Positions 16,897 through 50,768 of a stretch of 64,000 bases of DNA are shown one piece after another. Every line of letters begins with the position of its first letter. Position 1 is the first letter of the stretch. Source of the DNA: Candidatus Omnitrophota bacterium. Its GTDB lineage: Bacteria; Omnitrophota; Gorgyraeia; Gygaellales; Profunditerraquicolaceae. The position numbers and the translations under genes were made by a program. Location: the NCBI GenBank assembly GCA_018825985.1, contig JAHKAP010000018.1:4134-68133 (forward strand), read 5' to 3'. The notes beneath the pieces are model-generated. The model saw only the letters and a program-made list of their open reading frames with translations, was not told the DNA's origin and searched no databases.

Positions 16897-17731
16897 CCCT
16901 GATCCCTTCCTCTAAAGCCTGGCGCATTACTGTTAACGGGGCATTTTGGCCGGTCCAGATCTTAAACGCCGCAGCTCCCTGATATAAAAGCATGCCTAAT
17001 CCATTTGAACAAACCGCGCCCCTCTCCCGGGCAACCCACAACAACCTGGTTTCCTGGGGGCTATAGATCAGATCATAAACCAATAAATCTTTGTGGATAA
17101 GTTCCGGATTGACTAAAAGATGATCTTCTTTTTTCATCCCTACAGGAGTGCAATTCACTAATAAAGAACAGTCCTTAATATCCAATTCGTGCACTGATTC
17201 CACGGCTTTGAAATTAATTTTCTTAAAATATCCCAGGCGCTCAATCAAAGCCTGGACCCGGGACTGATCAATATCATAAATAGCGATCGAAGAAGGTTGG
17301 CTCTTACAGAGGTAGACCGCGATAGCCCGGGCAGCGCCTCCTGCGCCTAATATAGCTATGTTTTTACCGCTGGGAGAATATTTAAGATCCTGGGTCAAAT
17401 GTCTGTAAAATCCTTCCCCGTCGGTGTTAAAACCTTCCAACCCGTCGGAAAAAACCCTGATTGTGTTCACCACCCCGATCAGGCCAGCTTCAACCGAAAA
17501 ACTGGTCATAAAAGGCACAATTTTTTCTTTATAAGGATAGGTTACATTAAGTCCCTGAATATTGTTTTCTTTTAACGATTCCAAAAAACCTGCCAGATCA
17601 TCTTCTTTTAATTCAAAAAGTTTATACCCGGCATCTATATTAAGTGCCTTGAATGCAGCATTGTGCATCAACGGAGAAAGGCTATGTTTCACCGGATAGC
17701 CAACCAAACCATAAGTCTGAATAGAGGTCAT
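16877..17731 (-). CDS. aroE: Shikimate dehydrogenase
   Basis: GLVGYPVKHSLSPLMHNAAF, NVTYPYK, ILGAGGAARA. Confidence 0.9.
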   Translation of the reverse strand: MTSIQTYGLVGYPVKHSLSPLMHNAAFKALNIDAGYKLFELKEDDLAGFLESLKENNIQGLNVTYPYKEKIVPFMTSFSVEAGLIGVVNTIRVFSDGLEGFNTDGEGFYRHLTQDLKYSPSGKNIAILGAGGAARAIAVYLCKSQPSSIAIYDIDQSRVQALIERLGYFKKINFKAVESVHELDIKDCSLLVNCTPVGMKKEDHLLVNPELIHKDLLVYDLIYSPQETRLLWVARERGAVCSNGLGMLLYQGAAAFKIWTGQNAPLTVMRQALEEGIRDAAAGN

Positions 17732-19236
17732 TTGGAGTGTACTTTGTTCAACGCATCCAGATAGGCTTTGATCGCGGCCTCAACTATATCGGTACTTGTT
17801 CCGCGTCCGGACGCGACTTTATCTTTTATCTTGAGTTTAAGAATGACTTCGCCTAAGGCGTCCTTGCCGGAAGTAACCGCTCCTAAGCGAAAATCCTCCA
17901 GGCTCCCTTTAATATTCACAATTTTATCAATCGCTTTAAAGCTGGCGTCTACCGGCCCATCACCAAACGAAGAACCTTTTAAAATATTTCCCTTTTTCCT
18001 TAATTGCACCAAAGCCTCGGGTTTAATCTCAGTCCCTGAAGAAGCCCTAAAATTCACCAATTCCCAGACCGGAATCCTGGCTATTGTTATTTCATCTTCA
18101 ATGATAGTCCTCAGGTCATCGTCAAAAATATCTTTTTTCTTATCCGCCAAGTTCTTAAAATTCTCAAAAGCCTTATTTAACTGCTCTTCATTCAAATGAA
18201 AACCTATTTTTTTCAATCTTTCGCTGAAGGCATGCCTGCCGGAATGTTTTCCCAGAACCAAGCCTTCTACCTGAAATCCGACATCCTCACCGCGGATAAT
18301 CTCATAAGTAGAACGCTCCTTAAGCACCCCGTCCTGATGAATGCCTGATTCGTGCCTGAAGGCGTTTCCTCCTACTATAGCTTTATTAGGGGCGATGACA
18401 AACCCGGTTAGTTTACTGACCAGCCTAGATGTTTTATAAATATTTTTCTTTATAATACCAGTCTTTAAGCCGGCGTAAATATCTTTGCGGGTATCTATTG
18501 ACATAACTATTTCTTCCAGGGAGGCGTTACCTGCCCTTTCGCCGATACCATTAATAGTACATTCAACCTGCCGGGCTCCGTTTTTAACCGCGGCCAGGGA
18601 ATTAGCCACAGCCAGACCTAAATCATTATGGCAGTGGACTGAAATTACAGCCTTATGGATATTCACAACATTCTCTTTAATGCCTTTAATTATTCTGCCA
18701 AATTCCTCAGGCTCGCTATAACCAACAGTATCCGGTATGTTAACCGTGCCTGCTCCGGCATTAATCACAGCTTCTACCACTCTATGAAGAAATTCCTTTT
18801 CAGTCCGGGAAGCGTCCTCCGGAGAAAACTCAATATCCGGACAGAGTTTTTTAGCGTAAGTAACTGCTTCAACTGCCAGGCGCAGAATCTCGTCTTCGGC
18901 TTTTTTAAGCTTATATTTCATATGTATCTTTGAGGTCGCCAGAAATACGTGAATGCGTGGATTTTTAGCCGGTTTTAAAGCCTCATAAGCCGCATCAATA
19001 TCCTTTTTTATTGAACGGCTCAATCCGCAAATTACCGGTCCTTTGATATTGCGGGCAATATCTTTTACTGATTCAAAATCACCCTTAGAGGAAATAGGAA
19101 ATCCCGCCTCGATTACATCTACCCTCAGCTCAGCTAAAGAACGGGCAACCTCTATTTTTTCTTTCTGGTTTAAGCTGGCTCCGGGCGCCTGTTCCCCATC
19201 CCGCAAGGTCGTATCAAATATAATTATCTTATCCAT
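17728..19236 (-). CDS. leuA: 2-isopropylmalate synthase family (LeuA; a citramalate synthase cannot be excluded)
   Basis: [27 protein letters not shown] and a C-terminal LeuA dimerisation/regulatory region. Start set to the ATG at 19236 (MDKIIIFD) with GGA 8 nt upstream. Confidence 0.85.
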
Positions 19237-19254
19237 ATACACATCCTTATAAAA

Positions 19255-19340
19255 GTAGTTAGTAGATAGTAGGTAGTATGTAGGGTTCAGTAAATTCTGA
19301 TCTTTCCCCTAATACCTACCTACTACATGCTACCTACTAC
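19255..19340 (-). repeat. TAG/GTAG-rich intercistronic palindromic element, copy A (ilvC stop to leuA start)
   Basis: Left arm GTAGTTAGTAGATAGTAGGTAGTATGTAGGG and right arm CCCCTAATACCTACCTACTACATGCTACCTACTAC. The ilvC TAG stop (19337..19339) lies inside the arm. Confidence 0.7.
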
Positions 19341-20329
19341 TTTTTCATCCAGGGCATCATCTCACGAAGCTGTTTCCCCACCTTTTCGATCAGATGCTCA
19401 TCGCCTTCTTTTAACATCCGGTTAAAATTCGGCCTGCCGTCTTCATTCTCTTTGATCCACTCTTTGGCGAACTTCCCTTTTTGGATCTCTTTTAAAATCT
19501 TCTTCATCTCTTTCCTGGTCTTTTCGGTAATTATCCTCTTGCCCCGGCTTAAATCCCCGTAACAAGCAGTATTGGAAACTCCCCGGCGCATCCCGGATAT
19601 ACCCTTTTCCTGGATCAAATCGGTAATTAATTTTAACTCATGTAATACTTCAAAATAGGCTATCTCTGGTTGATAACCAGCCTCAACCAAAGTATCAAAA
19701 CCAGCCTTAATCAGCTCGGTCACTCCGCCGCAAAGCACAGCCTGTTCTCCGAAAAGATCAGTTTCGGTTTCTTCGGTAAAAGTAGTTTCAATTACTCCGG
19801 CCTTGGTTGCGCCTATAGCTTTGGCATAAGCCAAACCAATCTGACGGGCCACTCCAGTGGCATCCTGAAAAACCGCTAATAAACAAGGAACACCCTTGCC
19901 CTCCTCAAACATCCTGCGGACTAACGCTCCCGGTCCTTTGGGCGCGACCATAAACACATCCACATTCTTAGGCGGCTTTATTTGTTTAAAACGGATATTA
20001 AAACCATGGGAAAAACAAAGGGCCTTCCCCTTTTTTAGATTCGGCTTGATGCTTTCATTATAAACCTTGGACTGAACATGATCCTGGGTTAATATCTGTA
20101 TAATATCTCCGGCCTTAGCAGCTTCTAAAGCTGGGACAGGGGTAAACCCGTCTTTTTTAGCCTGCTCAAAATTAACAGTCCCCTCCATTTCAGAAACCAC
20201 TACATGGCATCCGGAATCACGCAAACACAATGCCTGGCCCCGGCCCTGAATACCATAACCAATAATAGCGATAGTCTTATCTTTCAACAAACTCAGATCC
20301 GCATCCTGCTCATAATAAATTTTAATCAT
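19337..20329 (-). CDS. ilvC: Ketol-acid reductoisomerase (class I)
   Basis: [19 protein letters not shown]; 330 aa with typical KARI conservation. Confidence 0.95.
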
Positions 20330-20418: not shown

Positions 20419-20892
20419 CTAATAAGCCATAACTATCCTGCCGCCCCGGATCAGTTCTTTTATCCCAAACTTAGTGAGCGCCTCCAATAATTGTTTTATC
20501 TGAGCCTGCTCGCCTACTACTTCTATTACCGCGGTATCGGCCTTATGGTAAACGGTCTTGGCTAAATATTTATTTAAGATATTTTCTAATCTGGTTTTAT
20601 CTTTAGACGAATAATTAACCTTAACTAAAACCAGCTCCCTGTCCACATGTTCTTTTTTGGTAAAATCAGTTACGGTAATCACATCAATAAGCCGATTGAG
20701 CTGTTTTTTAATCTGCTCCAAAATATTTTCATCTTTAGCCTCGACAACTATGGTCATCGCTGAAATTTCCGGATCTAGAGTCTCATTAACCGCCAAGGAA
20801 GCGATATTATAACCCCGGGCGCTGAATAAACCGGATATCCTGGCTAAAACACCAAATTTGTTCTCTACTAATACTGAAATCGTATGTCTCAT
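20419..20892 (-). CDS. ilvN: Acetolactate synthase small (regulatory) subunit
   Basis: ACT-domain N-terminus HTISVLVENKFGVLARISGLFSARGYNI. Confidence 0.9.
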   Translation of the reverse strand: MRHTISVLVENKFGVLARISGLFSARGYNIASLAVNETLDPEISAMTIVVEAKDENILEQIKKQLNRLIDVITVTDFTKKEHVDRELVLVKVNYSSKDKTRLENILNKYLAKTVYHKADTAVIEVVGEQAQIKQLLEALTKFGIKELIRGGRIVMAY

Positions 20893-20898
20893 ATTCTC

Positions 20899-22323
20899 CT
20901 ATACTAAGTTTATAAATATCTCGGTAGTCTTTGGGTCATAACGGATACCGCTGTATTTTTTTAATTCCTCTTTTGCCTCGCTAAAACTTAAACCTTTACG
21001 GTAAGGCCTGTCGGTGGTCATGGCGTCAAAAGAATCCGCGATAGAAAGGATCCTGGCGCCCATAGGTATCTCATCCCCCTTTAAGCCATCCGGGTAACCT
21101 GTGCCGTCAAGCGACTCATGGTGGTACCTGATTATACTGCACAGCCTTGAAAGAGACCTTATCGGCTTAACGATACCTTCGCCGATCACCGGATGCCCGC
21201 GCATTACCCGGGCCTCATCCTCATTTAAAAAAGTTGGTTTTCTTAAAATATCGTCACTTATCCCGATTTTACCTACATCATGAAGAAGGGCTGCGTCTTT
21301 TAAGGATTTGATAAAATCCTGGTCCAGCCCCAATTCTTTAGCGATCTTAACCGAATAGTCAGCCACCCTGTCCGAATGGCCGCGGCTATATAGATCACGG
21401 GCCTCAACTGCCATAGCTAAAGCGGAGATTGTCTCCAGATATGTCTTTTCGGCATCGATATTTAACCTTTCATTTTCCACCGCTACAGCTGTCTGGGTAG
21501 CTAAATTAGAGATAATTATTAATTCATCTTCCTGAAAATTACCCGGGATTATCTTACCCGCTACCGCCAAGACCCCAACGATTTTATCTTTATACAACAT
21601 TGGCGCGCACAACAAAGGCGGAGCAAAAGGATCTTCACCCGAACGTTCACCCGTTTTATTGACATCGGGAACCAACAATGGTTTTTTATTTTTCGCTGCC
21701 CATCCCGGGCCTTCTTCGCCTATTTTTAATCTTAAAGAGCTAAAGACACTGCCTATCCCGGCCGAAGCTTTAATATATAACTCCTGTTTTGCATCATCAA
21801 CAAGCATTAATGCTCCGGTCTTAGCGTCCAAGGCATTTGTGGTTACCTCAATGATCAATTCTAAAAAAGTATCGATGTTTTTAGAATTGGATATCCCGGC
21901 GGCAAGCTTGGTCAAGACATCCTGTATTGTCCGCTTTGATGCCTCCAGACGCTTAATATTCTCCTCCAGATTCTTGGTAATTTCATTAAAGGTTTTGGCT
22001 AACTGAGTTATTTCGCTTTCATCATCTTTAACCTCACCCAAAACAGAAATACCCCCCCCTAATGAACCCCTAGTTTTTCTGGACAATTCCTGGATCTTTT
22101 TTATAGAACTGCGCATACTAAAAAAACCGATCATAGAACCGATCCCGATAAGAAATATGATCCTTATTAATACTCCATGACTGATATTAATTGTATCCGA
22201 GTTATTGGACCGGATCAGTAAAAAAGTAACTACTAAAAAAGGTAAAATCGACATTACAAAGAACAATACCGAGAACTTTCGGATTATAGAAGAATCTCTT
22301 ATTGAAGTTAGTTTAAGCGCCAT
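20899..22323 (-). CDS. Membrane-anchored GAF plus HD-GYP signalling protein (putative c-di-GMP phosphodiesterase)
   Basis: N-terminal TM spans, a HAMP-like linker and a GAF-like region, then HSDRVADY...LHDVGKIGI...HHESLDGTGYPDGL (HD-GYP). Confidence 0.85.
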   Translation of the reverse strand: MALKLTSIRDSSIIRKFSVLFFVMSILPFLVVTFLLIRSNNSDTINISHGVLIRIIFLIGIGSMIGFFSMRSSIKKIQELSRKTRGSLGGGISVLGEVKDDESEITQLAKTFNEITKNLEENIKRLEASKRTIQDVLTKLAAGISNSKNIDTFLELIIEVTTNALDAKTGALMLVDDAKQELYIKASAGIGSVFSSLRLKIGEEGPGWAAKNKKPLLVPDVNKTGERSGEDPFAPPLLCAPMLYKDKIVGVLAVAGKIIPGNFQEDELIIISNLATQTAVAVENERLNIDAEKTYLETISALAMAVEARDLYSRGHSDRVADYSVKIAKELGLDQDFIKSLKDAALLHDVGKIGISDDILRKPTFLNEDEARVMRGHPVIGEGIVKPIRSLSRLCSIIRYHHESLDGTGYPDGLKGDEIPMGARILSIADSFDAMTTDRPYRKGLSFSEAKEELKKYSGIRYDPKTTEIFINLV

Positions 22324-22339
22324 ATTATTTATTAGAAGA

Positions 22340-24007
22340 CTAGGCTAATCCTTCGATCATCCTATTAATAGCTTCGCCTGCCGGAACCATCGGCCATACA
22401 TTTTCTTCCGGATCTACCGCGATATCCACAAAAACAACATTATCCGTATCAAAAGCCTTTATAATAGCCGCGCGAACCTGCTCTTTTTTATTCACCCGAA
22501 TACCCACCGCTCCATAGCTTTCCGCAAGTTTTACAAAATCCGGGCTATAGATAGGAGTGTGGGAATAACGCTTTTTATAAAACAGCTCCTGCCACTGCCT
22601 GACCATCCCTAAATAACCGTTGTTTAGAATAAACACCTTAACGTTTATCTTATTGGCCACGCAAGTCGCCAATTCCTGGATATTCATCTGGATCGAGCCG
22701 TCGCCGGCAATATCAATAACTTTTTTTTCCGGGCAGCCTATCTTCGCTCCTATTGCCGCCGGAAAACCAAAACCCATTGTTCCTAATCCTCCGGATGAGA
22801 TAAATGTCCGCGGATATATATAGGTAAACCACTGAGCAGCCCACATCTGGTTCTGGCCGACTTCAGTAGTGACGATTACGTCCCCTTTAGTAACATCATA
22901 GATCTGCTCAATAACATATTGAGGCTTGATCTTGCCATCTCCAGACTTATATTTTAAAGGATGCTTTTTCTTCCAGGAATCAACGGTCTTTAACCACTCT
23001 GAGGTATCCGGAGATTTTTTAATCTCTTCAATCAATTGCCCTAAAATATTTTTAGCATCACCCACTATCGGAATATCCACTTTAATATTCTTACTAATCG
23101 ATGTAGGATCAATATCAATGTGGATGACTTTTGCCGTTGGAGCAAAAGAATCGATCCTTCCGGTTACCCGGTCATCAAAACGCGCGCCCACAGCGATGAT
23201 CAAATCGGATTCAGTAGTCGCGTGGTTAGCATAAGCAGTGCCATGCATGCCCAACATACCTAAACATAAAGGATGAGTTCCCGGAAAACAGCCTAAACCC
23301 ATCAAGGTCATGGTTACAGGAGCGTTTATCTTCTCAGCCAGGACCTTTAATTCCTGGGCAGCACCGGACGTGATTACTCCTCCGCCGGCGTAGATTATCG
23401 GCTTTTTAGATTGGGATATCAATCTGGCTGATTTTTTAATCTGTCCGGGATGCCCGAAAAGAGTAGGTTTATATCCCCGGATATCCACTACTTCCGGCCA
23501 GACAAATTCAATATTCTGCATCTGGACATCCGATGGGATATCAATTAAGACCGGACCCGGCCTTCCGGTTGAGGCGATAAAAAAAGCCTCCCGAATTATC
23601 CTGGCTAGGTCTTTAGTGTCTTTGACTAAATAATTATGCTTAGTTATCGGCCGAGTGATACCTGTAACATCGGCTTCCTGAAAAGCGTCATTACCGATCA
23701 AAAAAGTCTTTACCTGGCCGGTAATTGCCACCATTGGGATGGAATCCATATAGGCATCCGCGATCCCCGTAGTAAGATTGGTTGCCCCCGGGCCTGAAGT
23801 AGCCAGGCAGACCCCCACCTTACCGGTTGCCCGAGCATAACCTTCGGCAGCATGGGCAGCGCCTTGTTCATGCCTGGTTAGTATAAGCTTTAAAGTTGAA
23901 TCGTAGAGCTTATCAAAAATAGGCAGAACCTGCCCGCCAGGGTAACCAAAGATATACTCTACGCCTTCACGCTTCAAACATTCTAATAATATTTCCGCAC
24001 CAGTCAT
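22340..24007 (-). CDS. ilvB: Acetolactate synthase large subunit
   Basis: ThDP enzyme: [12 protein letters not shown] and [17 protein letters not shown]...[12 protein letters not shown]. Confidence 0.95.
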
Positions 24008-25660
24008 TTAACTAACCACCGCTCCTTTATCCGCTGAAGAGACCATTTTGGAATAACGGGCCAGATACCCGGTCCTGATCTTGGGAGGAACCGGAATCCA
24101 TTTCTTAAATCTTTTTTCTATTTCCTGTTTGCTTAATTTAACCTCTAATTTTCTATTCGGTATATCTATATTGATTATATCATTATCTTTTAAAATCGCA
24201 ATTACACCCTTGTTTGCCGCCTCAGGAGAAACATGCCCGATACAAGGGCCTTTAGTCCCTCCGGAAAATCTTCCGTCAGTGATCAAGGCCACGGAATCAG
24301 CCAGGCCCATACCTACGATCGCCGCGGTAGGAGCCAGCATCTCGCGCATACCCGGACCGCCTGCCGGGCCTTCATAACGGATAACGATCACTTCTGCGCC
24401 CTTAATCTTTCCCCCCAGGATCGCCTGCATCGCTTCTTCTTCCCGGTTGAAAACTTTTGCCCTTCCACTGAATTTCATCATCTTGGAGTTTACCGCTGAC
24501 TGTTTGACTACCGCCCCATTCGGCGCCAAGTTCCCGAATAAAACAGCGATACCACCCTGTTCATGATAAGCCTTATTTAACGGCCGGATCACTTCTTCAT
24601 CAAAAATCTCAGCCTCATCAGCGATCTCAAATATCTTTTTACCGCTTAAAGTCAGGGTATTATTCAATCTGGATTTTAAACGCTTCAGTACTGCCGGGAT
24701 ACCTCCGGCAAATTCCACATCTTCCATAAAATGCGGACCAGCCGGCTCCAGATTAGTGATATGCGCAGTCTTCTTGCTGATATCATCAAAAACCTTAAGC
24801 CCCAATTTGATCTTAGCTTCATTAGCGATAGCCATGAGATGTAAAACCGTATTGCTGGAACCACCCAGCGCCATATCCACAGTAATAGCATTTTCCAAGG
24901 ATTGCTTATTGATAATATCCAGCGGTTTAATATCTTTCCGGACTAATTCTACTATCCGCTCTCCGCTAGCCTGGGCGATCCTGCGTTTGTTGGCTGACAC
25001 AGCCAGAGCAGTTGCGCAACCCGGCAATGACATGCCTAAAGTTTCAGTAAGACAGGCCATGGTATTAGCGGTATAAAGGCCCTGGCATGAACCTGCGCCA
25101 GGACAGGCCTGCTGTTCAATACACTCTAATTCTCCGGCTGAGATCTCGCCTTTTTTTGCCCGGCCTAAAGCTTCATAAGTATCATGAACAAAAGCTAATT
25201 TTCTAGTCTTATACCTTCCGGAAAGCATCGGCCCGGCAGTAACTATAATTGCCGGTATATTCAATCTGGATACGCCCATAAGCATGCCCGGAGTAATTTT
25301 ATCACAGTTAGTCAAGCAGATAATCCCATCCAATTGATGGGCATTACAAACAGTCTCTATAGTATCGGCAACGATCTCCCTTGAGGCTAAAGGATAACAC
25401 ATCCCGAGATGACCCATAGCAATACCATCACAAATACCCGGGACCCCGAAGAAAAATGGCACACCTGCGGCATAACAGATACCCCGCTCAATATAACGCT
25501 CGAGATCCCGCATCCCGATATGCCCGGGGATCAGATCAGTAAAAGATGTAGCCACGCCTATAAAAGGTTTATCAAAATCCCTTTTAGATAATCCCGTAGC
25601 GTAAAGAAGCGCCCGGTGAGGAACCCTCTCCAAACCTTTCTTGATCTTGTCTGATCTCAT
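24008..25660 (-). CDS. ilvD: Dihydroxy-acid dehydratase
   Basis: [29 protein letters not shown]. Start set to the ATG at 25660 (MRSDKIKKG) with GGAGG 8 nt upstream. Confidence 0.95.
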
Positions 25661-25682
25661 AATAGAACCTCCAAGCAACTTT

Positions 25683-45453: not shown

Positions 45454-46239
45454 TTATCCTTTTAGGGTTTTAACGAAATCGGTTACTCTCTTGATTAAAT
45501 CCGGGCGTTTGATATTCTCCTTGATCTTACGGACGATCGCGCTGCCGACAATCACCCCGTCAGCCGTTTTATTTATCTGCCTTATCTGCCGGGGCGTTGA
45601 AACTCCGAACCCCAGGCAAACTGGTTTATCCGTATATCTCTTGATCAATTTGACCTGCCGGATAAAATCTTTAGGCAGTTCTTTGCGGGAACCGGTGACT
45701 CCGGTCAATGAAACATAATAAATAAAACCATTGGCATTTTTTGCCACGTATTTTATCCTCTCCGGCGAACTGGTAGGCGCCAGAAAAAATATAATATCCA
45801 AACCGGACTTTCCGGCAACGCTCTTAAGTTTATTTCCTTCATCAGCCGGAAGATCAGGGATGATCACCCCGTCCACGCCGGAACAAAAAGCTTTTTTTAC
45901 AAATCTTTCCTCTCCAAAACAAAAAATAGGGTTGTAATAAGACATCAGGCAGATCGGGGTATCGGTATTTTTCCGCGCTAATTTAACTAGATTAAATATT
46001 TTATCCAGGTTAATGTCTTTTCTTAAAGCATGCTGCGAAGACTCCTGGATGATCGCCCCGTCAGCCAGGGGATCGGAAAAAGGAACACCCAATTCAATTA
46101 TGTCTACGCCCGCTTTAGAAAATTCCCGGATTAGCCCGGCGGTAGTAAACAGGTCAGGATATCCGGCAGTAATAAAAGCGATGAATGCCTTTTTATTCTG
46201 CTTTTTTAACTCCTTGAATTTTTTTTCAATCCGGTTCAT
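45454..46239 (-). CDS. trpA: Tryptophan synthase alpha chain
   Basis: [33 protein letters not shown]. Confidence 0.9.
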
Positions 46240-47408
46240 AGTTTTAACGCTTCCGTAACGATCCCCATATCTTTATCTCCCCTTCCGGAGAGGCAGGCTA
46301 TTACAATGTTATTTTTTTTAAGCTTCATTTTCTTAAGATAATAAATTGCGTGGGCCGATTCTAAAGCCGGAATGATCCCTTCGGATATGGATAACATTTT
46401 GAAACCTTCCAGCGCCTCCCGATCCTTTACAGCTACATAGGTCGCCCGTTTTATATCTTTATAATAAGCGTGCTCCGGCCCGACTCCTGGATAATCTAGC
46501 CCCGCAGCAATTGAATGCGTAGGGCTTATTTGGCCGTAGACATCTTCCAAGAGGTTCGATTTAGAACCATGAAGTACTCCGGTCTTCCCGCTGACTAAGG
46601 TTGCCGCGTGCTTACCGGTATTTATTCCCCGGCCTGCTGCCTCTACTCCTAAGAATCTGACTTTTTTATCACTGAAAAATGGGTAAAATAACCCCATTGC
46701 GTTGCTTCCGCCGCCAACACAAGCCAATAAATAACCGGGGAGTCTTTTTTCTTTATTTAATATCTGCCTTCTAGCCTCCCGGCCGATAATAGACTGAAAA
46801 TCCCTGACCAGCATCGGATATGGGTGCGGCCCGGCAACAGTCCCGATGACATAATGGGTGAGGCGCACATTAGTAACCCAGTCCCTTAAGGCTTCGGTCA
46901 TGGCGTCTTTTAATGTCTTAGTGCCGCTTTTCACCGGTATTACCCTGGCCCCTAAAAGCCGCATCCGGTAAACATTCAAACTCTGCCGGATAATATCTTC
47001 CTCGCCCATATAGATATCACATTTTAAACCGAATAACGCCGCTACCGTAGCAGTAGCTACTCCATGTTGGCCTGCGCCGGTCTCCGCTATAACTCTATTT
47101 TTTTTCATCCTGACTGCCAGGAGTATCTGGCCTAAAGTATTATTGATTTTATGTGCGCCGGTATGCAGCAGATCTTCTCTTTTTAAATATATCTTAAACC
47201 CTAAGTCCCGGCTCAGATTAGCGGCAAAATATAACGGCGTGGGCCTTCCGGCATATTCCTTTAGATAATAATCCAGCTCTTTGCGAAAAGCCAAATCATT
47301 TCTTGCTTTCTTATATTCCCTCTCTAATTCATCGAGAGCATATATAAGGGTCTCAGGAACGAACCTCCCTCCAAAATCACCAAAATATCCTTTTTTGTTC
47401 GGCACCAT
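46236..47408 (-). CDS. trpB: Tryptophan synthase beta chain
   Basis: [30 protein letters not shown]. Start set to the ATG at 47408; the track's GTG at 47423 lies inside a hairpin-repeat arm. Confidence 0.9.
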
Positions 47409-47416
47409 ATTTATCA

Positions 47417-47500
47417 GGGACACCCCGCCAGCTAAAGCTGAGGGTGTCCCCCTTCCATCATCTTAGGGGACACCCTGCCGATTAGTCAGCGGGGTGTCCC
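47417..47500 (-). repeat. Two tandem GGGACACCC hairpin repeats between trpF and trpB
   Basis: GGGACACCC...GGGTGTCCC at 47417..47450 has a loop containing CAGCTAAAGCTG, nearly identical to 10762..10795. GGGGACACCC...GGGGTGTCCC lies at 47466..47500. Neither is followed by a U tract. Confidence 0.8.
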
Positions 47501-47508
47501 TATGGTTT

Positions 47509-48123
47509 TTATTTTTTGACGGCTTTAATGAATTTTCTGACTTTACTCTGATCCTTTTTTCCCGGCAGCTTCTCTACGCCGCTGGAAACATCAACCCAGT
47601 GAGGACGAAAAGTTTTAATCGCCTGACAGACGTTTTTCTCAGTCAGGCCCCCGGATAAAAAGATCGGCCGGGTAATACACTCCGGATGCTGCACGAATTT
47701 CCAGTTAAAAACTTTACCGCTTCCGCCGAAACCGGACTTGGTATAAGTATCAAATAAATAAGCAAAAGCATTGTATTTTAATATCTCTTCCGGGCCGATA
47801 ACCCCCTTTACCCTAAAAGCTTTAATTACCCGTTTATCTTTAAACTTGGCGCAAAATTCCGGCGTTTCATCTCCGTGGAATTGGAGGAGATTTAATTTAC
47901 ATATTTTGGCGGTCTTTCTGATAAATGATTCAGTAGAATTAACAAAAACCCCGATCTTAATGATCTTCTCGGGTAATTGCCTGATTATACTACTCGCCTT
48001 AAGCGGACTGATGTACCGCGGGCTTTTTTTATAAAACATAAACCCCAAGGCATCGCAGCCTGCGTTTACTGCGGTCAAAGCATCTTCCAAATTAGTTATC
48101 CCGCAAATCTTTACTTTAACCAT
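47509..48123 (-). CDS. trpF: Phosphoribosylanthranilate isomerase
   Basis: MVKVKICGIT start (ATG at 48123, GGAGG upstream). The track's N-terminal extension overlaps trpC. Confidence 0.9.
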   Translation of the reverse strand: MVKVKICGITNLEDALTAVNAGCDALGFMFYKKSPRYISPLKASSIIRQLPEKIIKIGVFVNSTESFIRKTAKICKLNLLQFHGDETPEFCAKFKDKRVIKAFRVKGVIGPEEILKYNAFAYLFDTYTKSGFGGSGKVFNWKFVQHPECITRPIFLSGGLTEKNVCQAIKTFRPHWVDVSSGVEKLPGKKDQSKVRKFIKAVKK

Positions 48124-48148
48124 CCCCGCCTCCAGACTCCAAGCTAAT

Positions 48149-48937
48149 TCACCATCCCATAAGGTCCTTAATCTTCTCCGACCTATCATCAGCCCTTAAT
48201 ATAGATTCACCGATTAAAACCGCTTTTACTCCCAGAATCTTCAGGAATAAAATATCCTGGGAATTTTTCAGGCCGCTTTCTACTACCACTACCTTATCTT
48301 TGGGAACTAAAGTAATTAGCCTCTCGGTAATCTTAGGATCAACCTCCAAAGTATGTAAATCACGGTTATTTATGCCTATTAGAGGAACCTTTAGGTCCAG
48401 GACTTTTTTTAATTCTTTTTCCGTGTGCGCCTCAACCAAACAATCCATTCCTAAACTATCAGCGATCTTCATAAATTCTGATATTTTATCCTTGGAAAGC
48501 AGGTCCGCAATCAAGAGTATAGCGTCGGCCCCAAAAAACCTGGATTCATAAACCTGATAGGCTTCAATGATAAAATCTTTTCTTAACACCGGCAGATCAA
48601 CCGCGCTTTTAACCTCGTTTATAAAATTCAGGTTGCCGGCAAAAAAATCTTCTTCAGTTAGAACCGATATGCCTTGAGCCCCTGCCTCCTTATAAACCCT
48701 GGCGATATCAGCCGGGATAAACTCCTGGCAGATGAGCCCCTGAGAAGGCGATTGTTTCTTTATCTCGGCAATTAAAGAAATAGCTTTAGGCTTATTGATG
48801 GCCGCAATAAACTCCCTGGCCGCAGGCAGCCCCTGAACTTTATTTTTTAGTTCTTCTTCGGGAAGAGCCTGTTTAGCTAAAACGAGCCTCTCTTTTTTCT
48901 TAGCAACAATGTCCTTTAAACAATCTGTTTTTTTCAT
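48149..48937 (-). CDS. trpC: Indole-3-glycerol-phosphate synthase
   Basis: IAEIKKQSPSQG, LRKDFI, IGINNRDL. Confidence 0.9.
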   Translation of the reverse strand: MKKTDCLKDIVAKKKERLVLAKQALPEEELKNKVQGLPAAREFIAAINKPKAISLIAEIKKQSPSQGLICQEFIPADIARVYKEAGAQGISVLTEEDFFAGNLNFINEVKSAVDLPVLRKDFIIEAYQVYESRFFGADAILLIADLLSKDKISEFMKIADSLGMDCLVEAHTEKELKKVLDLKVPLIGINNRDLHTLEVDPKITERLITLVPKDKVVVVESGLKNSQDILFLKILGVKAVLIGESILRADDRSEKIKDLMGW

Positions 48938-48940
48938 TTC

Positions 48941-49504
48941 TTACGCCCTTAAAAAGTTAGCCAAAATATCTTTTCCATCCCTGGTCATAATTGACTCCGG
49001 ATGAAATTGCAATCCCCATAACGGATATTTCTTATGTTTTAAACCCATGACCTCTTTGTCTTTGGTCCAAGCAGTTATCTCTAAGGCCGCCGGAAAACTT
49101 ATGCGTTCTATTATTAAAGAATGGTAACGGGTAGCTTCAAAAGGATTAGGTATACCTTTAAAGATGCCTTTCTTTTTATGATATATCAAAGAAGTCTTCC
49201 CGTGCATGATCTTATCCGCTACTTTAATCTTTCCGCCGCAAACATAACCTATTGCTTGATGCCCCAGGCACACCCCCAGGATCGGGATCTTAGGGCTAAA
49301 TTCCCGGATGACCTCGCAGGAGATCCCGGCATCTTCAGGTCTTCCCGGGCCCGGAGAAATCACGATTCTTTGAGGACTAAGCCTTTCAATCTCACCCAAA
49401 CTTATCTTATCATTCCGAAAAACCCGAACCTTAGCCCCCAATTCCTCCAGGTATTGAACCAGGTTGTAGGTAAAAGAATCGTAATTATCAATCATCAATA
49501 TCAT
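48941..49504 (-). CDS. trpG: Anthranilate/aminodeoxychorismate synthase glutamine amidotransferase component
   Basis: [28 protein letters not shown]. Confidence 0.9.
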
Positions 49505-49505
49505 T

Positions 49506-50768
49506 TTATTCTTTTTCTCTCCAGATCCTTGCTCCTGCGCCCCTTAATTTATCCTCCAGGTTTTCATATCCGCGCTCCAAATGATAGATTCTAGATATCG
49601 AAGTAATCCCTTTAGCGGCTAAACCAGCCAGGACCAAACAGGCTGAAGCCCTCAGATCCGAGGCCATAACCTGAGCTCCGGATAAACCTTTTACACCTTC
49701 AACAATAGCATGCGGCCCTTCTCTTTGAATAAGCGCGCCCATACGGTTAAGTTCTGCGACATGCATAAACCTATCCGGATATATCTTTTCAGTGATTACA
49801 CTTATACCGGAAGTTATAGTCATCAAGCTCATAACCTGGGCCTGCATATCCGTGGGGAATCCCGGATACGGAAGCGTGGTAACATTGATCGGTTTTAGTT
49901 TATTTCTCAATCTCACCCTGATTGAATCGCTGGATTTAATTATCGAAGCGCCGGATTCTTCCAGTTTATCAATAACCGCGCCCAGATGAGGATAAAGGGC
50001 GTTTTTTATGTTCAAATCTCCTTTAGTGATCAAAGCGGCAGCCATAAGAGTGCCGGCTTCGATCCGGTCCGGGATTATCTTATGTTCACAGCCATGAAGT
50101 TTTTTCACCCCTTCAATTTCAATTATCGGAGTGCCATGCCCTTTGATCTTGGCCCCCATTTTAATCAAGAATTCAGCCAGGTCTGCTATTTCAGGCTCAC
50201 AAGCAGCTGATTCAATAACGGTTTTTCCTTTAGCAAACACAGCTGCCATCATCACATTATCCGTAGCTAATACCGAAGAGCCGTAAACCCCGCCCAGATA
50301 CATATACGATCCCTTAAGCCGGGAGGCTTTAGCCACTACATAACCGGATTCGATATCGATATGAGCCCCTAAAGCCCGAAGCCCTTTAAGATGTAAATCT
50401 ACCGGCCTCACCCCAATGATACAACCTCCGGGCAAAGAAACCCTGGCTTTTTTAAACCTGCCTAAAAGCGGGCCCAGGACGCAAAAAGATGCCCGCATGG
50501 TCGAGACCAATTTATAATCAGCGGTCAGGACCGGATCTCCTGCCTGGGTAACCTTAACAACTCCCTTAACATAATCGGCCATTTTACCTAAAGAACGCAA
50601 GATCTTCAACATTGTGATCACATCGCGTAAATTAGGCACGCCCCTTATAACACAAGGCTCATCAGTCATCAGAGTCGCCGCCAAAATAGGAAGCACTGAG
50701 TTCTTTGAGCCCGAAACCAGGACTTCACCTTTAAGCCTTACTCCACCTTCAATAACTAATCTATCCAT
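49506..50768 (-). CDS. murA: UDP-N-acetylglucosamine 1-carboxyvinyltransferase
   Basis: [30 protein letters not shown] (active Cys). Confidence 0.95.

Follow-up and report, generated by a model that had tools for sequence, protein, structure and literature searches.

Gene organisation of the ilv locus

We analysed a 64,000-nt stretch of contig JAHKAP010000018.1 from Candidatus Omnitrophota (hereafter the window), and in particular the open reading frame (ORF) at 20899-22323 on its minus strand, hereafter X, which encodes a predicted cyclic di-GMP (c-di-GMP) phosphodiesterase and lies between the genes for the large and small subunits of acetolactate synthase (acetohydroxyacid synthase, AHAS). 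The genes around it form a branched-chain amino acid (BCAA) biosynthesis string, ilvD-ilvB-X-ilvN-ilvC-leuA, on a single strand:

24008-25678, minus strand: ilvD, dihydroxy-acid dehydratase (curated cut-off passed)
22340-24007, minus strand: ilvB, large subunit of acetolactate synthase, 555 aa (TIGR00118 at 883 bits, cut-off 538)
20899-22323, minus strand: X, ATG to TAG, 474 aa, predicted c-di-GMP phosphodiesterase (ORF list, Pfam, PDB and Foldseek matches)
20896-20900, minus strand: AGGAG, Shine-Dalgarno sequence of ilvN, overlapping the TAG stop of X (20899-20901), with the ilvN ATG at 20892 (read from the sequence)
20419-20892, minus strand: ilvN/ilvH, small (regulatory) subunit of acetolactate synthase, 157 aa, with ACT and ALS_ss_C domains (TIGR00119 and NF008864 above cut-off; Pfam)
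19337-20329, minus strand: ilvC, ketol-acid reductoisomerase (curated cut-off passed)
17728-19242, minus strand: leuA, 2-isopropylmalate synthase (curated cut-off passed)

The start codon of X is fixed by an in-frame stop immediately upstream, and gaps of 16 nt and 6 nt separate the gene from ilvB and from ilvN, respectively. The original prediction had placed a 474-aa transmembrane (TM)/HAMP-like/GAF/HD-GYP protein in this string with these same gaps, and the ORF, Pfam and NCBIfam data all agree with it. When set beside the canonical ilvBN(H)-ilvC operon, the window has the same enzymes in the same order and on the same strand, but ilvB does not directly precede ilvN, the signalling gene being placed between them. 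The minus-strand genes continue on both sides of the ilv string, with aroE and a prepilin peptidase gene downstream and genes for fructose-bisphosphate aldolase (FBA), phosphofructokinase (PFK), adenosylhomocysteinase and MetK upstream. The base composition of X is like that of the neighbouring genes. A riboswitch, T-box or leader element governing the string was also considered and rejected: an Rfam search of the window returned three tRNAs only, with no Rfam element inside the ilv string, and terminator-like and promoter-like sites in the string do not exceed chance level.

Conservation of X in the ilv operons of Omnitrophota

Ten contigs encode an identical X protein within the same order of genes; they derive from three NCBI metagenome-assembled genomes (MAGs) and several independent Logan assemblies of Sequence Read Archive data, all of them assigned to Candidatus Omnitrophota. 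Because the order recurs in 10 independently assembled contigs, it is not an assembly artefact, and misassembly was rejected. Candidatus Gygaella obscura and a 646-kb contig encode X orthologues with 61-63% identity, likewise in the ilv operon but between ilvN and ilvC. For a wider survey of orthologues, metagenome contigs were scanned with an alignment of the N-terminal part of the protein (TM/HAMP-like/GAF) and annotated by tblastn, which gave 39 further ilv-embedded X loci. In a scan of genome contigs with the full-length alignment, for which motifs of the generic HD-GYP core were used, the matches listed were all non-orthologous HD-GYP proteins with at most 52% local identity. Dereplication at 95% identity left 36 distinct X orthologues on Omnitrophota metagenome contigs, about 56-65% identical over their full length, in two arrangements:

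Arrangement A: ilvB-ilvN-X-ilvC, 21 distinct lineages
Arrangement B (that of the window): ilvB-X-ilvN-ilvC, 15 distinct lineages

The insertion is therefore conserved in 36 distinct lineages and is not peculiar to one assembly. The interruption of the ilvB/ilvN pair that had first drawn attention to the locus is real and conserved, but only in arrangement B; arrangement A is commoner and retains the canonical ilvB/ilvN overlap (-1 nt). What is constant is the contact with ilvN, which X directly adjoins in all 36 lineages. A wider string, PFK-FBA-ilvD-ilvB...ilvC-leuA-aroE-pilD, is common to the X-bearing loci. In both arrangements the X/ilvN junctions are typically of -4, +1 or +6 nt, and X, ilvN and leuA mostly have no recognisable Shine-Dalgarno sequence, while ilvC nearly always has a strong one. 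Tight junctions and the lack of a Shine-Dalgarno sequence of its own are as expected if X is a translationally coupled internal cistron, and the same-strand junctions make the proposed co-expression with the ilv genes likely. We found no description of this arrangement in the literature, and it is apparently undescribed.

A recent horizontal insertion was rejected, as X has no compositional anomaly and its orthologues are deeply diverged yet syntenic. In a neighbour-joining tree of X, the sequences from arrangement B form one clade, except that of the window, which is basal; the trees of the Ilv proteins are poorly resolved and carry no support values.

At two loci with arrangement A (L123 922-2333 and L128 2802-4213) the matches to X are in two pieces or have a displaced N-terminal part, which suggests frameshifts, due either to pseudogenes or to assembly errors. 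A few close homologues of X and IlvN (P0088, P0096 and P0201) have source records that name Margulisiibacteriota or Planctomycetes, yet their identity to proteins of Omnitrophota is 50-78%; probably these are binning or labelling errors.

Domain architecture of X

The modules of X were delimited by hydropathy, by Pfam and NCBIfam matches and on an AlphaFold2 (AF2) model, with the predicted local distance difference test (pLDDT) as measure of model confidence:

22213-22275, minus strand: TM helix 1, about residues 17-37 (Kyte-Doolittle peak; AF2 helix 13-41)
22114-22179, minus strand: TM helix 2, about residues 49-70 (hydropathy; AF2 helix 49-90)
21883-22113, minus strand: HAMP-like segment and long signalling helix, residues 71-147 (NCBIfam, and weak Pfam HAMP matches in homologues; AF2 helices with low pLDDT)
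21475-21882, minus strand: GAF domain, residues 148-283 (Pfam GAF_2 and GAF, E=3e-12; pLDDT 75-93)
20929-21420, minus strand: HD-GYP domain, residues 302-465 (Pfam HD_5, E=1.2e-36)

The hydrophobic segments are centred on residues 21-31 and 53-62, and the loop between the helices is so short, at about 10 residues (about 7 between the AF2 helices), that X has no extracytoplasmic sensor domain. The term HAMP-like is based on the similarity of residues 54-147 to WalK in its TM2-HAMP part (NCBIfam, E=1e-6) and on weak Pfam HAMP matches in homologues of X. The AF2 model has a mean pLDDT of 77.9, with the GAF and HD-GYP domains mostly above 85, and in it a long helix (residues 265-309) joins the GAF to the HD-GYP domain, as in the architecture of the PmGH type.

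PmGH (4MCW) is also the best solved relative of X, with both domains in one alignment (residues 136-472, 337 residues, E=2.7e-45), and the top Foldseek match of the X model; the c-di-GMP-bound DvhD, PA4781 and V-cGAP3 follow among the solved relatives. X and PmGH share the GAF domain, the connecting helix and the HD-GYP domain in the same order, together with seven metal ligands, the GYP motif and an Rxx(K/R) motif. X differs in its two TM helices and about 75 HAMP-like and helical residues, whereas proteins of the PmGH type are soluble and have no other N-terminal module, and also in its location inside an ilv operon. By its sequence, X is a member of the PmGH-type GAF-HD-GYP family with an added membrane anchor, in a new genomic context.

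Catalytic residues and predicted substrate

The metal ligands common to active HD-GYP proteins are, in PmGH numbering, H189, H221, D222, H250, H276, H277 and D305 (PMC4159591). In X, H316, H348, D349, H377, H401, H402 and D430 align with these seven of the eight PmGH metal ligands, and the HHExxDGxGYP motif reads HHESLDGTGYP (residues 401-411). Across 59 homologues the ligands, G409, P411 and R439 are invariant, except that H316, like Y410, is conserved in at least 90%; R442 is the majority residue. The possibility that the HD-GYP residues would prove degenerate on proper alignment, raised with the original prediction, is thus not borne out, with the seven metal ligands, GYP and the RxxR motif all intact.

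The eighth PmGH ligand, E185, is replaced by Y312 (in D310-L-Y312-S-R-G-H316), and this tyrosine is conserved in at least 90% of the 59 homologues. X consequently lacks the acidic residue followed by T-G that marks the trinuclear E/D-T-G subfamily. According to Bellini et al., proteins with Y/F at the E185 position form a second evolutionary group of HD-GYP proteins, in which a tri-iron centre is not expected (PMC4159591), and according to Galperin and Chou the acidic residue is tied to the onward hydrolysis of pGpG to GMP, the Y/F subfamily having no efficient pGpG hydrolysis. As Tyr312 takes the place of the third-metal ligand of PmGH, X can be placed in the binuclear Y/F subfamily, with pGpG as its predicted main product.

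The substrate-contact motif of X, R439-P-Y-R442, aligns with R314-P-Y-K317 of PmGH. It has the canonical c-di-GMP-contacting form Rxx(K/R), the RxxR of X being shared with 88% of HD-GYP proteins, and is distinct from the reported signature of specificity for cyclic GMP-AMP (cGAMP), Rxx(Q/N) (10.1101/600031). On the strength of its subfamily and of this motif, X most likely linearises c-di-GMP to pGpG. The original prediction had allowed for c-di-GMP or a related nucleotide; c-di-GMP remains the predicted substrate, and cGAMP is disfavoured by the RxxR motif, in which the cGAMP-specific signature was sought and rejected.

It is unlikely that X degrades another nucleotide, such as 3'3'-cGAMP or pGpG, in place of c-di-GMP. 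The binuclear-type enzymes PA4781 (4R8Z) and V-cGAP3 (5Z7C) align with the HD-GYP domain of X at E=7.5e-22 and E=8e-41, respectively, and differ from X in their sensor modules (REC and a tandem HD-GYP, respectively). V-cGAP3, the second-best PDB match of X, hydrolyses 3'3'-cGAMP and has, as X does, a tyrosine in place of E185 and the motif RPYR, which speaks for such an activity. Against it stand the RxxR motif of X, where Rxx(Q/N) is the reported cGAMP signature, and the report that the V-cGAPs have no specificity-determining variations (10.1101/600031).

Possible functional significance of the association with the ilv genes

With moderate confidence, we propose that X is a c-di-GMP phosphodiesterase that forms a fixed cistron of the ilv operon in one Omnitrophota clade and is co-expressed with AHAS. 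X would be a dimeric one-component signalling enzyme anchored in the inner membrane and built of two TM helices, followed by a HAMP-like segment and signalling helix, a cytoplasmic GAF domain, a long helix and the HD-GYP domain. It would be transcribed together with the ilv genes and its translation coupled to theirs, so that the amount of phosphodiesterase would track the expression of the BCAA biosynthesis genes, and a ligand of the GAF domain, perhaps together with a membrane cue, would gate its activity. The gene, its domains, its intact catalytic residues, its conserved neighbourhood and its tight junctions are read from the sequences; the enzymatic activity of X, its product and its co-transcription are predictions, and we infer any functional coupling to BCAA synthesis from gene order, which is a weak guide in these genomes.

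Several observations weigh against this proposal. We looked up the contigs of six IlvN proteins among those most similar to that of the window: one (L174) has arrangement B, and five (L172, L173 and L175-L177) carry FBA-ilvD-ilvB-ilvN-ilvC-leuA without X, their ilvB and ilvN genes overlapping in the canonical way (-1 or -4 nt). More distant members of the family, a sister subfamily of the same architecture that is 42-46% identical, are found in a different, likewise conserved string, nadA-nifS-nifU-X'-ychF (L130-L135, for example L132 4215-9532), and members 49-52% identical to X or X' adjoin purB-purL, purU/DUF2339/panB or unannotated genes. The association with ilv genes is therefore limited to one subfamily and is not a property of the whole architecture. 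Every Pfam-assigned ORF of the 64-kb window is on the minus strand, in a single co-directional array that combines glycolysis, ilv/leu, aro and trp genes (trp at 45454-50768) with translation factors, enzymes I and IIA of the nitrogen-related phosphotransferase system (PTS-Ntr EI/EIIA), polA, rho and pilD. Given this mixed single-strand array and the relatives without X, co-location is weaker evidence of shared function here than in a typical bacterium. X is the sole signalling protein encoded in the window, in which genes for GGDEF, EAL or PilZ proteins are absent, and the alignment of IlvN has no column that separates X-bearing from X-less operons, so that a signature of co-evolution in IlvN was rejected.

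These observations can also be accounted for if X is a general c-di-GMP phosphodiesterase of Omnitrophota that landed in a dense co-directional array, was inherited there and is unrelated to BCAA synthesis. The mixture of unrelated pathways on one strand, the existence of the same operon without X, the housekeeping strings that hold distant family members, the lack of an X-specific signature in IlvN and the presence of other unrelated genes at the ilvC-leuA junction of relatives (a 610-aa protein of unknown function, DUF3352 and DUF2007 proteins) would all be expected in that case. They are opposed by the adjacency to ilvN in 36 of 36 lineages, which has persisted despite about 35-45% sequence divergence and a swap in gene order, and by the X/ilvN junctions, which often overlap. 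We regard this explanation as possible but not probable; if it holds, the locus is still a caution against deriving function from gene order in tightly packed single-strand genomes.

A search with X' returned 638 proteins at E<=1e-60; among the 120 listed, nearly every one has about 475-500 residues and the same domains, and those with a source name bear the label Omnitrophota. This documents a phylum-wide TM/HAMP-like/GAF/HD-GYP family in ultra-small, uncultivated bacteria, the signalling of which has hardly been studied. One of the X' loci (L130) encodes a GGDEF protein about 4 kb downstream (12397-13419), and the presence of such a cyclase gene in a related Omnitrophota locus implies that the phylum is able to make c-di-GMP.

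Possible ligands of the GAF domain

In a profile search against the PDB, the first matches of the GAF domain of X are cyclic AMP (cAMP)-binding GAF domains, namely Lcd1 in its cAMP-bound form (1.9e-15), CyaB2 (3.1e-12) and the GAF domain of PDE10A (7e-8). Sequence and profile searches also return the PtsP GAF domains, DosS/DosT and PmGH, NCBIfam gives weak PtsP and NifA matches in this domain, and 5W10 and 1YKD are among the Foldseek matches of X. By sequence and by fold, X thus resembles the cyclic-nucleotide GAF group (Lcd1, CyaB2 and the PDE GAF domains). Of the NKFDE motif, X has just a degenerate form, G256-K257...F263-x-x-D266-E267.

The original prediction had suggested that the GAF domain might sense a metabolite of the BCAA pathway. 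The only known BCAA-binding GAF domain is that of CodY. It was not detected with the single sequence at E<=1 or with the profile at E<=10 in the PDB, nor is it among the 50 Foldseek matches listed for X, and a CodY-like BCAA-sensing domain was accordingly rejected. As the profile finds cAMP-binding, PtsP and DosS-type GAF domains and no CodY, the suggestion of a pathway metabolite is not supported. A haem-sensing domain was rejected as well: X has Ala234 (P-F-A-P-P) at the position of the haem-ligating histidine of DosS (P-Y-H-P-P), a residue that is the proximal haem ligand in DosS and DosT.

Fourteen positions of X are specific to the ilv-associated subfamily, and six of them (160, 202, 206, 210, 244 and 282) are in the GAF domain. 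This is not a convincing or significant enrichment, since the GAF domain accounts for 30% of the protein and has six of the 14. Their presence nevertheless means that the GAF pocket of X may have a specificity of its own.

If the GAF domain is responsive to cyclic nucleotides (cAMP or another), or if it serves only for dimerisation, X would integrate a general second-messenger signal and not a BCAA metabolite. The leading profile matches (Lcd1, CyaB2 and PDE10A) and the absence of CodY at E<=10 are in line with this, and there are precedents for both versions: Tlr0485 of Thermosynechococcus is a cAMP-activated GAF-HD-GYP protein, and the dimer interface of PmGH is made up of its GAF domain and long helix (PMC4159591). 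Tlr0485 and X are both one-component GAF-HD-GYP proteins, the first a phosphodiesterase gated by its GAF ligand and the second with a GAF domain nearest to those that bind cAMP, but X is membrane-anchored, and the two are set side by side by description and not by sequence. The matches to PtsP and NifA and the six subfamily-specific positions count on the other side, and we consider a cyclic-nucleotide or purely dimerising GAF domain a tentative alternative. The GAF domains of PtsP and NifA sense glutamine and 2-oxoglutarate. By analogy with these proteins and with Tlr0485, possible ligands of X are cAMP or a 2-oxo acid or amino acid, and it is also possible that it has none.

IlvN as a possible c-di-GMP effector

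In the usual view, c-di-GMP switches cells between a motile and a sessile way of life, and few direct ties connect it with central amino acid biosynthesis. In the case of AHAS, the previous ties come down to a single binding hit that has no explanation and to a few mutants from evolved lines: in a screen of the Escherichia coli ORFeome by the capillary-action ligand-binding assay DRaCALA, IlvH was among three putative binders of c-di-GMP (reported in PMC4624772), and in Pseudomonas fluorescens three IlvH missense mutations, independent of one another, raised c-di-GMP (PMC9600634). The maintenance of X beside ilvN over dozens of diverged lineages and across a swap in gene order is an independent, comparative-genomic pointer in the same direction. 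The reports on IlvH and the present locus are alike in that the regulatory subunit of AHAS is tied to c-di-GMP; the former are experimental hints from Proteobacteria whose operon lacks a phosphodiesterase of its own, whereas here the link is purely genomic.

These data allow a more local form of signalling to be considered, in which IlvN/IlvH is itself an effector of c-di-GMP or pGpG and X is its dedicated, co-translated and membrane-tethered phosphodiesterase, the messenger tuning the activity or the feedback inhibition of AHAS and so setting the BCAA flux. This would account for the orphan DRaCALA hit of E. coli IlvH and for the P. fluorescens mutations, and the strict adjacency of X and ilvN in both orders, where the stop codon of one gene frequently overlaps the start of the next, fits a local X/IlvN module. 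We nevertheless give this module low weight, because the IlvN proteins of X-bearing operons have no residues that distinguish them from those of X-less operons; in addition, the binding by IlvH has no follow-up in the literature we found, and X is anchored in the membrane while AHAS is soluble. Both the effector role of IlvN and the dedication of X to it are in our view improbable. The loci do supply protein pairs on which they can be tested, namely X together with the IlvN proteins of X-bearing and X-less operons.

That branched-chain amino acids can influence the level of c-di-GMP has a precedent in SpdE of Aeromonas veronii, a dCache diguanylate cyclase inhibited by Pro, Val and Ile. SpdE differs from X in that its dCache sensor is periplasmic and its output domain is GGDEF, that it senses external amino acids and that its gene is not part of a biosynthetic operon.

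Other features of the loci

The ilvC-leuA junction is a second insertion hot spot of the same operon. In relatives it holds a 610-aa protein with no Pfam match (L007 7476-9308), a 197-aa unknown protein (L011 7565-8158), DUF3352 proteins of 623-659 aa (L174 5605-7476 and L176 5493-7472) and a 73-aa DUF2007 protein (L173 5465-5686). Defence-like genes are found just upstream of distant members of the X family, namely an AIPR and RES-domain pair (L009 2318-4480) and, at a contig edge, a reverse-transcriptase-TIR fusion (L179 1-183).

In the window, the listed ilvD ORF begins with TTG (start region 25661-25678) and has 556 aa, while the MAG annotations give 550 aa from an internal ATG, which is probably the real start. 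At 10816-15801 on the minus strand there is an ORF of 1661 aa (given as 1617 aa by the MAG annotations). Pfam matches nothing in it but two widely separated pieces of cofactor-independent phosphoglycerate mutase (iPGM), Metalloenzyme (931-1055) and iPGM_N (1303-1423), about 900 N-terminal residues being unannotated. As a normal iPGM has about 510-545 aa, as at L130-L135, this ORF may encode a giant fusion or extension of iPGM.

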